55,732 bases of DNA from a virus (IMGVR_UViG_2563366819_000003:1-55732); one strand, 5' to 3'; numbered from the stretch's first letter, positions 22,910 through 35,404 are shown. Numbers and translations: made by a program. Notes: generated from the sequence alone by a model not told the origin.

Positions 22910-23787
22910 AAATGTCCACCATTCCCACCCTTCTGGGGCCGGACGGCATGACATCGCTGCGTGAATATGCCGGTTATCACGGCGGTGGCAGCGGATTTGG
23001 TGGGCAGTTGCGGGCGTGGAACCCACCGAGTGAAAGTGTGGATGCAGCCCTGCTGCCCAACTTTACCCGTGGCAATGCCCGCGCAGACGATCTGGTACGC
23101 AATAACGGCTATGCCGCCAACGCCATCCAGCTGCATCAGGATCATATCGTCGGGTCTTTTTTCCGGCTCAGTCATCGCCCAAGCTGGCGCTATCTGGGCA
23201 TCGGGGAGGAAGAAGCCCGTGCCTTTTCCCGCGAGGTTGAAGCGGCATGGAAAGAGTTTGCCGAGGATGACTGCTGCTGCATTGACGTTGAGCGAAAACG
23301 CACGTTTACCATGATGATTCGGGAAGGTGTGGCCATGCACGCCTTTAACGGTGAACTGTTCGTTCAGGCCACCTGGGATACCAGTTCGTCGCGGCTTTTC
23401 CGGACACAGTTCCGGATGGTCAGCCCGAAGCGCATCAGCAACCCGAACAATACCGGCGACAGCCGGAACTGCCGTGCCGGTGTGCAGATTAATGACAGCG
23501 GTGCGGCGCTGGGATATTACGTCAGCGAGGACGGGTATCCTGGCTGGATGCCGCAGAAATGGACATGGATACCCCGTGAGTTACCCGGCGGGCGCGCCTC
23601 GTTCATTCACGTTTTTGAACCCGTGGAGGACGGGCAGACTCGCGGTGCAAATGTGTTTTACAGCGTGATGGAGCAGATGAAGATGCTCGACACGCTGCAG
23701 AACACGCAGCTGCAGAGCGCCATTGTGAAGGCGATTTATGTCTATCATCTCACCGTAGTTGCCCGCATCGTTCGCCAACTCCACTGA
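22906..23787 (+). pseudogene. B: Portal protein B, N-terminal fragment (about 276 aa of B, then 17 codons of read-through into the inserted element)
   Basis: Matches lambda B up to ...LQNTQLQSAIVKA (about nt 23735), then diverges (IYVYHLTVVARIVRQLH*); remainder of B found at 34631..35404. Confidence 0.9.
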
Positions 23788-23864
23788 AACCCTTGCTGCG
23801 TCTGGAATGTCGTTTTCCATGCTTTTGATGACCGTTCATCACCCTTCCAGTTTTTCGCGGTTTT

Positions 23865-23917
23865 GTGTATTGCAATGTGTATTGCAAATTGGCGATCGGG
23901 ATGGGTGTGTATTGCAA
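23865..23917. repeat. Three direct copies of GTGTATTGCAA upstream of satellite integrase (candidate arm-type integrase/regulator binding sites)
   Basis: gtgtattgcaa at about 23865, 23877 and 23907; related copies gtgtattgca / gtgtattgc at 34530..34551 near the other end of the element. Confidence 0.5.
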
Positions 23918-23935
23918 ATCTCTTGAGGGCTTTTA

Positions 23936-25177
23936 ATGGCTATTGAAAACAAACTCAGTGACAAACTGTTAAAGAGTCTTGTCGGAAAACGGCAGGACAA
24001 ACAAAAAACAATAGCGGATGGGCGCGGGTTGTCTGTGCGTGTAAGCATGGTTGGGGGGATCAGCTTTGTTTTTTACTATCGTCTTGGTGGCAGGGAATCC
24101 CCTCCGGTATGGCTTACACTTGGTCGCTATCCTGACATGTCTCTTGCAACGGCCAGGCGCATGCGTGATCAGTGCCGTGAATGGCTGGCTGAAAATCTGG
24201 ACCCCCGCAGGCAAATAAAACTTGCTGCCGAAAAAACTATGCAACCAGTGACCGTAAGGGATGCGCTGTTTTACTGGTACGACAATCACGCCACAACAGC
24301 CAGAAAAGAGCATGAATATTTAATAAAACGATTTGAAAAGCATATCTTCCCCTATATCGGTGATATGGCTATAGAACAGTGCAAATTACACACATGGCTT
24401 ACCGTCTTTGACAGGATCAAAAAAAATGCGCCTGTTATGTCTGGTGCAATTTTTCTTGATATCAAACAGGCGTTGCGTTTTTGTCGCGTCAGGCAATACA
24501 TCGCGTGCGATCCCTTTGGAGATATTAACGTAAGTTATGTCGGGCGCTCATCCGGTATAAGGGATCGCGTTCTTAATATCAATGAAACCGCTGATGTATG
24601 GTCTTATGCTTACGGTAATAATTTGCTAACTCTGTCATCAATATATAACCGAAGAATAATGGTTATCTGCCTGGTGTTTGGTTGCCGACAGCAGGAGGCG
24701 AGGCTATCCACCTGGGACGAATGGGATTTAAAAAACTGGGTATGGACAGTCCCAAAAGAGCACAGCAAAAACAAGGAGGCTATAGTAAGGCCTGTTCCTG
24801 ACGGAATAAAACAATGGATCGTTAATCTTTACGCAGAAACAAAAAATCGCGGTTATGTTGTCGGTTGTGCTTTGCAAAGGGCGACAATAACAGGGGCTGC
24901 AAACAGAATATGCAGGCGTCTTGGTCATGATACTAATGGCTTGTGGTGCATACATGATTTCAGGCGCACATTTTCCACTACGCTTAATGATATGGGGGCG
25001 GATCCTTATATTGTTGAACTTCTTTTAGGTCATAAAGTGAAAGGGGTTGCTGGTGTTTACAATAAAAGCAGGCATATAAAGAAAAAACTTGAGGTGCTTA
25101 ATATGTGGGTTAATTACCTTAATACGATAGCAGGATTTAACAACAACGTTATCGAGCTTAATAAAGAGGTGGTGTGA
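23936..25177 (+). CDS. int: Tyrosine integrase, P4-type
   Basis: 413 aa; C-terminal catalytic region (HDFRRTFSTTLNDMG...LLGHKVKGVAGVYNKS); at one end of the inserted element adjacent to the repeat. Confidence 0.9.
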   Translation: MAIENKLSDKLLKSLVGKRQDKQKTIADGRGLSVRVSMVGGISFVFYYRLGGRESPPVWLTLGRYPDMSLATARRMRDQCREWLAENLDPRRQIKLAAEKTMQPVTVRDALFYWYDNHATTARKEHEYLIKRFEKHIFPYIGDMAIEQCKLHTWLTVFDRIKKNAPVMSGAIFLDIKQALRFCRVRQYIACDPFGDINVSYVGRSSGIRDRVLNINETADVWSYAYGNNLLTLSSIYNRRIMVICLVFGCRQQEARLSTWDEWDLKNWVWTVPKEHSKNKEAIVRPVPDGIKQWIVNLYAETKNRGYVVGCALQRATITGAANRICRRLGHDTNGLWCIHDFRRTFSTTLNDMGADPYIVELLLGHKVKGVAGVYNKSRHIKKKLEVLNMWVNYLNTIAGFNNNVIELNKEVV

Positions 25178-25178
25178 T

Positions 25179-25436
25179 ATGGCAATTTATTCTCTTGTTG
25201 ATGAAAACGATTTGCGCACAATGAAGGACATTGATCGGTTCATTCGTGAAAAAGAGTGCATAGCACTTACCACGCTGGCAAACTCAACACGCTGGAAAAT
25301 GGAGCTAGCAGGTAAATTCCCGCGACGTATCAAGATCGGTGAACGTGCTGCAGGGTATCGACTTTCAGAGGTTCAGGCATGGATCCGTGGTGAGTGGCAT
25401 CCTGGATGGAAACCTGGAAAAACAAAACAGCAATAA
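25179..25436 (+). CDS. alpA: AlpA-family HTH regulator / excisionase-like protein
   Basis: 85 aa; AlpA-like segment LTTLANSTRWKMELAGKFPRRIKIGERAAGYRLSEVQAWI; directly downstream of the integrase. Confidence 0.8.
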   Translation: MAIYSLVDENDLRTMKDIDRFIREKECIALTTLANSTRWKMELAGKFPRRIKIGERAAGYRLSEVQAWIRGEWHPGWKPGKTKQQ

Positions 25437-33522: not shown

Positions 33523-33533
33523 CGTAGTACGCT

Positions 33534-33815
33534 ATGACTGAATCCGAAATACTGCGATTAATCCGCCGTGCTTGTGGAATCAGCAAGCAGCATGACGAAC
33601 AGGCCACGCAGCCGGACAGCGTGACCGCAGATAATTATGTGCGTGTAGTGGCTGAGGTGATGCGCCGTGACGGTATTGAGCTTAACGGCGTGGATATGCG
33701 CAACATACGAACAAGAGTCCTTGAGTTGCTGGCATATCGTCGCCGTTCTCAACAACGGAGGGAGAGCGCGAAAAATACTTACCAGTGGAAGAAGCCGGAA
33801 CGATTGCGGCGGTAA
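33534..33815 (+). CDS. Hypothetical basic protein
   Basis: 93-aa ORF immediately after TerS; Arg-rich C-terminus. Confidence 0.35.
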   Translation: MTESEILRLIRRACGISKQHDEQATQPDSVTADNYVRVVAEVMRRDGIELNGVDMRNIRTRVLELLAYRRRSQQRRESAKNTYQWKKPERLRR

Positions 33816-33824
33816 CTTGCTGAT

Positions 33825-34222
33825 ATTCCCGATAACGCAAAATTGCGCTGGCTGACTTGTTGCATTGCAAAAAGTTAAGCAGGAAGGCACGGCCTGTAAG
33901 ATGGGATGCAGTAAGTAGTTCAAGGCTACCTTGTGCTGGCACGCACAGTTAAGCCGTCGGTGCTGGATATCCCCCACTGGGGGAAAAGCTGGCTACATCC
34001 CTCACATCTGAGGACTGATAACGCGACATTGCGCTGGCTGGCAAAGTGCAAAATTGCACGATGGCCTAACCCATTGATTATTTCGAAAACCTGCAATGCA
34101 GGAAATCGGGGAAGTAAGCCTAAGCTATTGATTGTTTCGAAAACCCCCATTGGGGGATGTCGGGAAAGTAAGACTAACCCATTGATTCTTCCACAATCCT
34201 CAATTTGAGGAGGCCGGAACGT
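33825..34222. repeat. Array of short hairpin-forming palindromes with differing stems in an ORF-poor region
   Basis: cgcaaaattgcg (about 33834), cccccactggggg (33971..33983), cctcacatctgagg (34009..34022), gtgcaaaattgcac (about 34055), cctgcaatgcagg (34100..34112), cccccattggggg (34154..34166), cctcaatttgagg (34207..34219); three share a flanking motif attgatt..ttcgaaaac. Confidence 0.45.
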
Positions 34223-34630
34223 CTACATAGCTGCATCGCCGTAATGATGATTCAGCCCACCAGCCAAATCAGCACAGCAACGACAGAATAGCCCGACACA
34301 GAAAAACCACGAATATGGGGTTTTTGTTATGACATGGTCATGATGACCACTCATACAAAACAGGTAAAGCCCACCAGCCTGATTAAAGGTTAACCGGAAA
34401 AAAGCCAGGTATCCAATCTCGATATGGGGATCCCTATATCGACATTAACGCTCACTAAAACTGTGCATATATGCATAGAAAAAGCATCCACCAGCTTTAT
34501 GACGGATGCCGCTCATCTTATAAATAATCGTGTATTGCAGTGTGTATTGCGACTCCTTTAAACGATAGGTCTGAGCATTCGTAATGTACTGTTTTTAAAT
34601 TTTATTTTTTCCTGTCTTTTCATAAAGGCG

Positions 34631-35404
34631 ATGTATGCCGCCACCATTGAGAGTGAGCTGGATACGCAGTCAGCGATGGATTTTATTCTGGGCGCGAACA
34701 GTCAGGAGCAGCGGGAAAGGCTGACCGGCTGGATTGGTGAAATTGCCGCGTATTACGCCGCAGCGCCGGTCCGGCTGGGAGGCGCAAAAGTACCGCACCT
34801 GATGCCGGGTGACTCACTGAACCTGCAGACGGCTCAGGATACGGATAACGGCTACTCCGTGTTTGAGCAGTCACTGCTGCGGTATATCGCTGCCGGGCTG
34901 GGTGTCTCGTATGAGCAGCTTTCCCGGAATTACGCCCAGATGAGCTACTCCACGGCACGGGCCAGTGCGAACGAGTCGTGGGCGTACTTTATGGGGCGGC
35001 GAAAATTCGTCGCATCCCGTCAGGCGAGCCAGATGTTTCTGTGCTGGCTGGAAGAGGCCATCGTTCGCCGCGTGGTGACGTTACCTTCAAAAGCGCGCTT
35101 CAGTTTTCAGGAAGCCCGCAGTGCCTGGGGGAACTGCGACTGGATAGGCTCCGGTCGTATGGCCATCGATGGTCTGAAAGAAGTTCAGGAAGCGGTGATG
35201 CTGATAGAAGCCGGACTGAGTACCTACGAGAAAGAGTGCGCAAAACGCGGTGACGACTATCAGGAAATTTTTGCCCAGCAGGTCCGTGAAACGATGGAGC
35301 GCCGCGCGGCTGGTCTTAAACCGCCCGCCTGGGCGGCTGCGGCATTTGAATCCGGGCTGCGACAATCAACAGAGGAGGAGAAGAGTGACAGCAGAGCTGC
35401 GTAA
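34631..35404 (+). pseudogene. B: Portal protein B, C-terminal fragment (257 aa), in frame with N-terminal fragment if the insert is removed
   Basis: MYAATIESELDTQSAMDFILGANSQEQ... continues lambda B exactly where the 22906..23735 fragment stops. Confidence 0.9.

Follow-up and report, generated by a model that had tools for sequence, protein, structure and literature searches.

An insertion in portal gene B of a lambda-like prophage and its place among helper-embedded phage-inducible chromosomal islands

The viral sequence IMGVR_UViG_2563366819_000003 (55,732 nucleotides, hereafter the window) contains a lambda-like prophage whose portal gene B, as read directly from the DNA, is broken within codons 275-277 by an insert of 10,897 bp. 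This insert is very probably (about 0.93 in our estimation) a helper-embedded phage-inducible chromosomal island (HE-PICI) from the site group published as B:Phage_portal_2:241, housed in a complete lambda-like prophage, equipped with its own tyrosine integrase and lying in the orientation of the late operon of its host phage, the helper. The HE-PICI family was described by Tommasini, Mageeney and Williams in 2023, and the embedded arrangement, the B:241 site and this element itself are already contained in that publication (PMC10111431). The present analysis is an independent rediscovery that adds detail, and does not describe a new kind of system.

Besides the prototype, 11capE, the published survey maps 491 HE-PICIs, which occupy 14 sites distributed over nine late genes of the lambda type and always point the same way as the late gene, and assigns to the family a four-zone organization consisting of integration, Bro, replication and late zones (PMC10111431). 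Its supplement entry Eco4623.11.B_Phage_portal_2_241 corresponds to CP006834.2/1830842-1841738, with the identity block "aaggcgat" (PMC10111431). Megablast matched 100% of the insert, at 99.9% identity, to CP006834.2 1830838-1841742, RefSeq annotates two portal halves flanking that copy, and the Pfam breakpoints of the portal domain, 242 and 238, agree with the 241 in the name of the site. HE-PICI integrases form a clade of their own with subclades that match the target site (PMC10111431), and the whole element in the window, int included, is 99.7-99.9% identical to the listed B_Phage_portal_2_241 member; by its sequence the integrase appears to belong to that clade. The direct identity to a published element therefore settles the question of membership.

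The split portal gene and occupancy of its site

An earlier interpretation of the same DNA, made by a model without database searches (the sequence-only reading), had placed the two halves of B 10.9 kb apart. Indeed Phage_portal_2 matches two separate open reading frames (ORFs), positions 2-242 of the domain falling in 22906-23787 and positions 238-354 in 34631-35404. When the halves are rejoined, as that reading had proposed, 22906-23735 and 34633-35404 form a single ORF of 1,602 nt (533 aa) whose full length matches lambda B at 99.4% identity, in protein and in DNA. The insert is bounded by a direct repeat of 8 bp, AAGGCGAT, and removal of the insert together with one repeat unit restores the reading frame of B exactly. 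The left junction reads GTGAAGGCGAT followed by TTATGTCT and the right junction TCATAAAGGCGAT followed by GTATGCCGCC, while codons 275-279 of lambda B itself are AAGGCGATGTATGCC. The predicted junction of the restored gene is GTGAAGGCGAT joined to GTATGCCGCC, and that of the excised circle (attP, 34632 joined to 23736) is TTCATAAAGGCGAT joined to TTATGTCTATC. In the integrated state the 5' ORF of B extends 17 codons into the element and stops at 23787; B is intact only once the insert has been removed, in line with the proposal that no portal is made unless the element excises. The int, alpA and primase genes are on the same strand as B, and all genes of the element but one are co-oriented with it.

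The reconstructed attP is flanked on both sides by a doubled TGTATTGC motif. The HE-PICI-specific attP motif, tgTGTATTGCantgTGTATTGCa, is reported to be doubled and to occur in two co-oriented copies, ~81 bp upstream and ~132 bp downstream of the attP centre (PMC10111431), and the spacing in the element is roughly as published. The TGTGTATTGCAAAT motif occurs a third time, as a single copy at 23906-23919, 30 nt past the doubled copy and just before the start codon of int; the published description has two doubled copies only (PMC10111431).

The distribution of the element was determined in 5,426 complete Escherichia coli genomes. The integrase gene is present in 65 of these, the attL junction (5' part of B to element) in 64 and the attR junction (element to 3' part of B) in 59, while at least 80% of the element is found in 53 genomes, in which the copies are 99.5-99.9% identical and the sources include chickens, pigs, dogs, humans and food. 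With 65 integrase genomes against 64 that have the B junction, the integrase practically never occurs at any place other than the portal site in this collection. A 300-bp reconstruction of the unoccupied site is intact in 3,119 of the genomes and also in 80 phage records; lambda, HK629, HK630 and DE3 match it at 100% identity. The element itself is carried by no phage record. The target site is abundant and rarely occupied.

It could be argued a priori that the insert is an assembly artefact, or the remnant of a second prophage that has been joined to the first. The two junctions recur, however, in 59-64 independently assembled complete genomes, and these counts therefore rule out an artefact of assembly. 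The 8-bp target duplication, the exact restoration of frame and the lack of tail, lysis or repressor remnants in the insert also speak against a joining of two loci, an explanation to which we give almost no credence.

Gene content, packaging genes and class of the element

The element displays the four-zone order of the family, integration, Bro, replication and late, and its features are listed in Table 1 together with those of the helper that bear on the insertion. Every component named by the sequence-only reading was found (integrase, AlpA, Bro-N protein, primase with iterons, SSB, cos, Nu1-like terminase and E- and D-like capsid genes). The stated lack of portal, protease/scaffold, large terminase and tail genes was confirmed by searching the ORFs of at least 50 aa on both strands of 23728-34632 with Pfam and PHROGs, which revealed no portal, protease/scaffold, head-tail adaptor/connector, large terminase, tail or holin/lysis gene; nor did the insert contain a repressor or other prophage remnants. 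PICIs of Gram-negative bacteria have five core components, namely int, alpA, primase, capsid homologue and small terminase (PMC10085698). All five were identified in the element by Pfam and PHROGs, and the components 'forbidden' to PICIs (tail, holin, portal and head-tail connector genes) are missing, which upholds the view of the insert as a satellite dependent on a helper, as opposed to a second prophage. That reading had also regarded the element as a blend of P4-like features with capsid genes taken from the helper family. Distant kinship of the capsid genes to the helper family is indeed evident, but the gene set is the standard core of a Type A PICI (PMC10085698) and not a P4/PICI blend.

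The major capsid homologue, the decoration homologue and the small terminase could be seen as signs of a capsid-forming PICI (cf-PICI), which would build its own heads and steal only tails. cf-PICIs, however, are defined by possession of their own portal, prohead protease/scaffold, adaptor/connector and large terminase (PMC10085698); none of these is encoded here in any frame, and the gene content refutes the proposal. A satellite of the P4 type, or a P4/PICI hybrid, is very unlikely. Its attraction lies in the integrase, AlpA and the D5_N/DUF5906 primase, which are distantly related to Int, Vis and alpha of P4, and in the designation of the primase as 'P4 family' by RefSeq in some genomes. 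Distant sharing of Int, AlpA and Pri-Rep, and of these only, is nevertheless what links P4 to PICIs in general (PMC6092414). Furthermore, Pfam and PHROGs identified no homologue of Psu, Delta, Sid or Epsilon in the element, its cos is of the lambda type and not the P2 type, and it exhibits synteny and up to 98% protein identity with PICIs. P4-type CI/seqA (C4, isrK) immunity RNAs have been reported in some HE-PICIs; Rfam revealed nothing credible of the C4/isrK type in the whole window at the gathering score, or in the element at E<=5.

The E-like and D-like proteins display 42% and 38% identity to E and D of the helper, compared with 98.8% and 97.3% to their 11capE homologues, and are therefore ascribed to an old PICI lineage, as opposed to being recently acquired from the helper in which the element sits. 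The window contains exactly two copies of the 12-nt lambda cohesive end, GGGCGGCGACCT, one in the helper (20072-20083) and one in the element (32835-32846), both on the + strand, against a chance expectation of 0. Alignment of the two cos regions revealed near identity over ~65 nt of cosQ/cosN, whereas the rightward, cosB side is unrelated. The same pattern, a lambda-like cosQ/cosN with an unrelated cosB, is seen in the PICI EcCICFT073 (PMC6739421).

The small terminase (TerS) encoded beside this site displays 35% identity to the Nu1 of the helper, with 30% over Nu1 residues 1-60 and 45% over residues 100-181. In lambda Nu1, residues 1-60 constitute the DNA-binding part and residues 100-181 the part that binds gpA. 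The gpA-binding C-terminal region of TerS is thus better conserved than the divergent DNA-binding N-terminal region. This TerS type and the cosB side are present in 767 of the 5,426 genomes, and the protein belongs to a PICI lineage. A copy taken from a sequenced phage was considered and rejected, as the best match was N15 gp1 at 47.6% and all phage matches were below 60%. The Rpp proteins of PICIs, which are ~140-153 aa in size and encoded downstream of cos, form heterodimers with the TerS of the helper (PMC6739421). Neither TerS nor the 127-aa helix-turn-helix (HTH) protein of the late zone could be equated with an Rpp: no match was found to any solved Rpp chain in the PDB, RppC included, and BLASTP of TerS against RppA of EcCICFT073 produced no alignment at E<=100.

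The gene for the 127-aa HTH protein, which is 95.3% identical in 11capE, lies directly upstream of the satellite cos, and its product could regulate the late zone or bind cos. In EcCICFT073 an unrelated protein of 137 aa occupies this place, and among the proteins of that PICI the HTH protein has a weak match to AlpA only.

Table 1. Positions of the features of the element and of the relevant parts of its helper, counted from the first nucleotide of the window
Feature	Position	Strand	Details
Helper integrase	1-1164	-	
Helper Q	15561-15959		
Helper packaging module upstream of B	20072-22909	+	cosN 20072-20083, Nu1 20261-20806, A 20781-22706, W 22703-22909
Helper B, 5' part	22906-23735	+	codons 1-276 plus 2 nt; Phage_portal_2 positions 2-242
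attL core AAGGCGAT	23728-23735	+	same as published identity block 'aaggcgat' (PMC10111431)
Doubled TGTATTGC motif	23864-23886	+	sequence tgTGTATTGCaatgTGTATTGCa; ~129-133 bp downstream of attL core
Tyrosine integrase, 413 aa	23936-25177	+	Pfam Arm-DNA-bind_3, Phage_int_M, Phage_integrase (arm-binding, central and catalytic domains)
alpA, 85 aa	25179-25436	+	Pfam Phage_AlpA 2.8e-13
Bro-N domain protein (Bro zone)	25493-26071	+	Pfam Bro-N 4.9e-20
YlcI/YnfO family gene	26405-26710	-	RefSeq annotation of 99.9%-identical copy; phrog_6522; sole annotated opposite-strand gene
Icd-like gene	26901-27098	+	RefSeq annotation
Three small ORFs	27091-27276, 27276-27467, 27468-27689	+	RefSeq; PHROG matches mostly of unknown function
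DUF4222 gene	27707-28006	+	Pfam DUF4222
P4-family primase/helicase, 584 aa	28003-29757	+	Pfam D5_N, DUF5906, Pox_D5
Putative replication origin	29772-29993		11 TCTACC-type iterons, both orientations; directly after primase gene
Small ORF	30104-30355	+	
ssb	30352-30774	+	Pfam SSB 5.5e-16; phrog_1231
E-like major capsid homologue	30992-32032	+	Pfam Phage_cap_E 3.8e-41
D-like decoration homologue	32042-32383	+	Pfam HDPD 5.4e-15
Second AlpA-family HTH protein, 127 aa	32395-32778	+	Pfam Phage_AlpA 1.3e-08; PDB 8c3t AlpA-family regulator 8e-11
Satellite cos	32800-32880	+	cohesive end GGGCGGCGACCT, 32835-32846; similar to cos regions of lambda-like phages
Nu1-family small terminase (TerS), full length, 180 aa	32980-33522	+	Pfam Phage_Nu1 positions 80-162; phrog_57
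Conserved ORF, 93 aa	33534-33815	+	76% identical to last ORF of EcCICFT073
Non-coding right arm	~800 bp, up to attR		
Three tandem 54-nt units in right arm	34064-34225	+	each with short hairpin
Second doubled TGTATTGC motif	34529-34551	+	sequence cgTGTATTGCagtgTGTATTGCg; ~78-81 bp upstream of attR core
attR core AAGGCGAT	34625-34632	+	read directly
Helper B, 3' part	34633-35404	+	Phage_portal_2 positions 238-354

In the replication zone, the iteron pattern has 51 matches in the window, 11 of which lie within the 222 bp of the putative origin. A 356-aa ORF at 26028-27098 was discarded, as it has no Pfam match and RefSeq places the YlcI/YnfO and Icd-like genes there; long antisense ORFs of the element, such as 28833-29558 (-), likewise lack a Pfam match and are taken to be spurious. 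A YlcI/YnfO-type gene is also present in the PICIs EcCICFT073, EcCIDi14 and 11capE, and the helper has one too, on the opposite strand just upstream of cos (19678-19872, -), according to the RefSeq annotation of near-identical copies; the helper version matches Pfam DUF3950. A PADLOC scan of ten proteins of the element, among them small ones of unknown function, detected no defence cargo.

The right arm as a whole is restricted to this element (53 genomes). In its three 54-nt units, of which the second and third are 80% and 61% identical to the first, the stems vary yet stay complementary (CCTGCA-ATGCAGG, CCCCCA-TTGGGGG and CCTCAA-TTTGAGG), and the units overlap just one unsupported ORF, of 91 aa with a GTG start. 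Folding of the three repeats as RNA gave z = -1.64, which is not significant.

The gene set of the helper looks complete. It comprises int, exo, bet, a cI-like S24 repressor, O, P, Q, holin, lysozyme and Rz, followed by cos, Nu1, A, W, the split B, C, D, E, the tail genes through J, lom and the side tail fibre. The late operon is on the + strand, and Nu1 and A of the helper are 98.3% and 99.7% identical to those of lambda. The window does not contain the lambda att core, GCTTTTTTATACTAA, and the helper is therefore not at the lambda attB used by the helper of strain APEC O2-211. Its nin region houses an inverse autotransporter of 1,302 aa (9879-13787) of the intimin/invasin type, with IAT_beta, repeated Big_1 and Invasin_D3 domains. 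In strain Res13-Lact-PEA14-20, whose helper is closely related, a NACHT-domain protein takes this position, which therefore represents a variable cargo slot. A lone DndB-like gene (2061-3125, -; Pfam DndB 3.8e-46, PADLOC DndB 4.3e-37) adjoins the helper integrase, and no other dnd genes were seen near it. Further cargo consists of an OmpC/NmpC-type porin (16149-17231, -) between Q and the lysis genes, bor (19022-19363, -) and lom (50017-50616), and beyond the tail-fibre genes the ORF of an AraC-family regulator (54983-55732) leaves the right end of the window.

A proposed life cycle and the evidence that bears on it

The life cycle that we propose for the element is transferred, step by step, from its relatives 11capE and EcCICFT073. 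In 11capE the first event is excision of the composite of helper and satellite, which replicates; precise excision of the satellite itself comes afterwards, at 2 h (PMC10111431). In EcCICFT073, AlpA is the activator and its expression depends on the helper, and transfer by lambda is cos-dependent and occurs in phage-sized capsids (PMC6092414). By analogy, SOS induction would cause the whole composite in the window to excise and replicate, and late transcription of the helper, antiterminated by Q, would proceed through Nu1, A, W and the 5' part of B into int and alpA. The satellite would then excise late, restoring B, and only at this stage would portal be made. Replication of the satellite would start from its own origin, and its Nu1-type TerS might bind the private cosB beside the lambda-identical cosN and recruit gpA of the helper. 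Satellite concatemers could thereby be packaged into heads that contain the portal and protease of the helper and receive its tails, and lysis by the helper would complete the release of particles. Full-size heads would probably contain 4-mers (4 x 10,897 = 43.6 kb, ~90% of lambda), unless the E- and D-like proteins redirect capsid size. The packaging window of lambda is roughly 78-105% of 48.5 kb, and a full-size head would therefore be filled by four satellite units, but not by three or five. The prerequisites visible in the sequence are in place, namely intact int and alpA genes, att cores, arm-type motifs, the putative origin and a private cosB with its own TerS.

Several observations weigh against this scheme. 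Neither virions nor plaques were recovered for the prototype 11capE, and no HE-PICI has yielded virions (PMC10111431). Excision, replication and packaging are attributed to B:241 elements by extrapolation from relatives. Packaging of EcCICFT073 needs Rpp together with the TerS of the helper; the element has no Rpp homologue, and the packaging route suggested above is drawn solely from the homology of its TerS. Deletion of the capsid homologue or of the decoration gene of EcCICFT073, in a phage-interference test, had no reported effect (PMC6092414). The scheme also invokes read-through from B into the element, on which two features bear. Promoter-like matches in the element are weak and fewer than in shuffled sequence. 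In addition, a terminator scan placed a strong hairpin resembling an intrinsic terminator, GCCCCTCATCACGAGGGGT with TTTTTT after it, in the interval from alpA to the Bro-N gene (25449-25475; stem-loop 25449-25467), which would cut off int and alpA from the rest of the element unless transcription were antiterminated. The hairpin recalls the regulated termination of P4, but no C4/isrK RNA was detected in the element.

Some of these points could be taken to mean that the insertion is a fossil, with a prophage permanently inactivated by loss of its portal and an element that no longer excises or transfers. The failure to obtain 11capE virions and the truncated appearance of many HE-PICI helpers (PMC10111431) fit such a dead end, as does the excess of attL over attR genomes (64 and 59), with only 53 genomes retaining at least 80% of the element, which suggests that some copies are decaying. 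It should be emphasized, however, that all annotated ORFs of the element are intact, as are both att cores and both arm-type motifs, and that near-identical copies occur in the 53 genomes from varied hosts and food. The helper in the window, moreover, has a full gene set, and the related 11capE excises precisely (PMC10111431). We therefore regard a dead end as unlikely.

In the unexcised composite the two co-oriented cos sites, with their identical cohesive ends, are 12,763 bp apart. A composite concatemer packaged from the cos of the element to the next helper cos would yield a chromosome that is lambda-sized but lacks the terminase genes. The possibility that such packaging of the unexcised composite seeds truncated prophages with attR only found no support, there being fewer attR than attL genomes and no excess of attR-only cases.

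A further proposal, which we offer as speculation with the odds well against it, is that the portal-site subgroup bypasses Rpp by using its own TerS with helper gpA on the private cosB, and that excision of the satellite is an obligatory checkpoint before any head, of helper or satellite, can be built. As this TerS type is already present in EcCIDi14, any novelty would be confined to the combination and what follows from it functionally.

Relation to known satellites

A helper with a parasite in its portal gene can make no head before the parasite has gone, a case of "regulated gene integrity" that serves a mobile element. Three outcomes of this study may be of use for work on HE-PICIs, namely the module mosaic described below, the counts on site fidelity and the perfect empty site of laboratory lambda, of HK629/HK630 and of DE3. 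Since the attB of wild-type lambda is 100% identical, a standard lambda lysogen would permit tests of the integration, excision and packaging of a B:241 element. The B:241 subgroup could thus become the first experimentally tractable HE-PICI system, which might get round the failure to obtain virions that held up the original study.

The APEC O2-211 element, Eco4623.11.B_Phage_portal_2_241, is the same element as that in the window, with the same target codon, 8-bp block, doubled TGTATTGC motif and late-operon orientation. Its helper is slightly different, being 98-99% identical where alignable and having another gene in the nin region. The HE-PICI prototype 11capE (Eco567.11capE), located in the capsid gene E in E. 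coli NRG857c, is likewise embedded in its helper, co-oriented and organized in four zones. The likeness is closest in the capsid/decoration/HTH module (95-99%), with 89% protein identity for YlcI and 79% for SSB. In contrast, the target is codon 80 of E and not codon ~276 of B, the integrase is only 53.6% and the primase only 43% identical to those of the element, and 11capE lacks terS, with HEPN and DUF262 genes at the right end instead. Excision data from experiment exist for 11capE (PMC10111431).

The model PICI of Gram-negative bacteria, EcCICFT073 (Fillol-Salom et al. 2018, 2019; PMC6092414, PMC6739421), has the same gene order and uses lambda-type helpers. The primase is 97.8% identical to that of the element, DUF4222 73%, SSB 69%, the last ORF 76%, the capsid homologue 55% and the D-like protein 54%. 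EcCICFT073 differs in being integrated beside chromosomal phoQ, from where it acts on its helper only in trans, and its integrase is 40% (39.8%) identical to that of the element. Downstream of cos it encodes RppA (144 aa), which forms a heterodimer with the TerS of the helper, while the element has in this place its full-length Nu1-type TerS, with no detectable similarity to RppA.

P4 and the cf-PICIs, like the element, are small integrative satellites of temperate phages with an int-alpA-primase left half. The resemblance ends there, as P4 has Sid, Psu and Delta and a P2 helper, and cf-PICIs possess their own portal, protease, connectors and large terminase, and the element contains none of these genes. 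The counterpart of the TerS of the element is found in EcCIDi14, a reference PICI of E. coli clone D i14 that interrupts an IS110 transposase gene. EcCIDi14 is syntenic with the element and has a 180-aa Nu1 protein of the same type at the same position, with 87% nucleotide identity; it also shares the homologues of the capsid and decoration proteins as well as the last small ORF. EcCIDi14, however, is not embedded in a prophage, has a RepA-type helicase in place of the P4-family primase and carries a different integrase. Judged by these sequence comparisons, the element is a mosaic that combines a replication module of the EcCICFT073 type, a capsid module of the 11capE type and a cosB and TerS module of the EcCIDi14 type.

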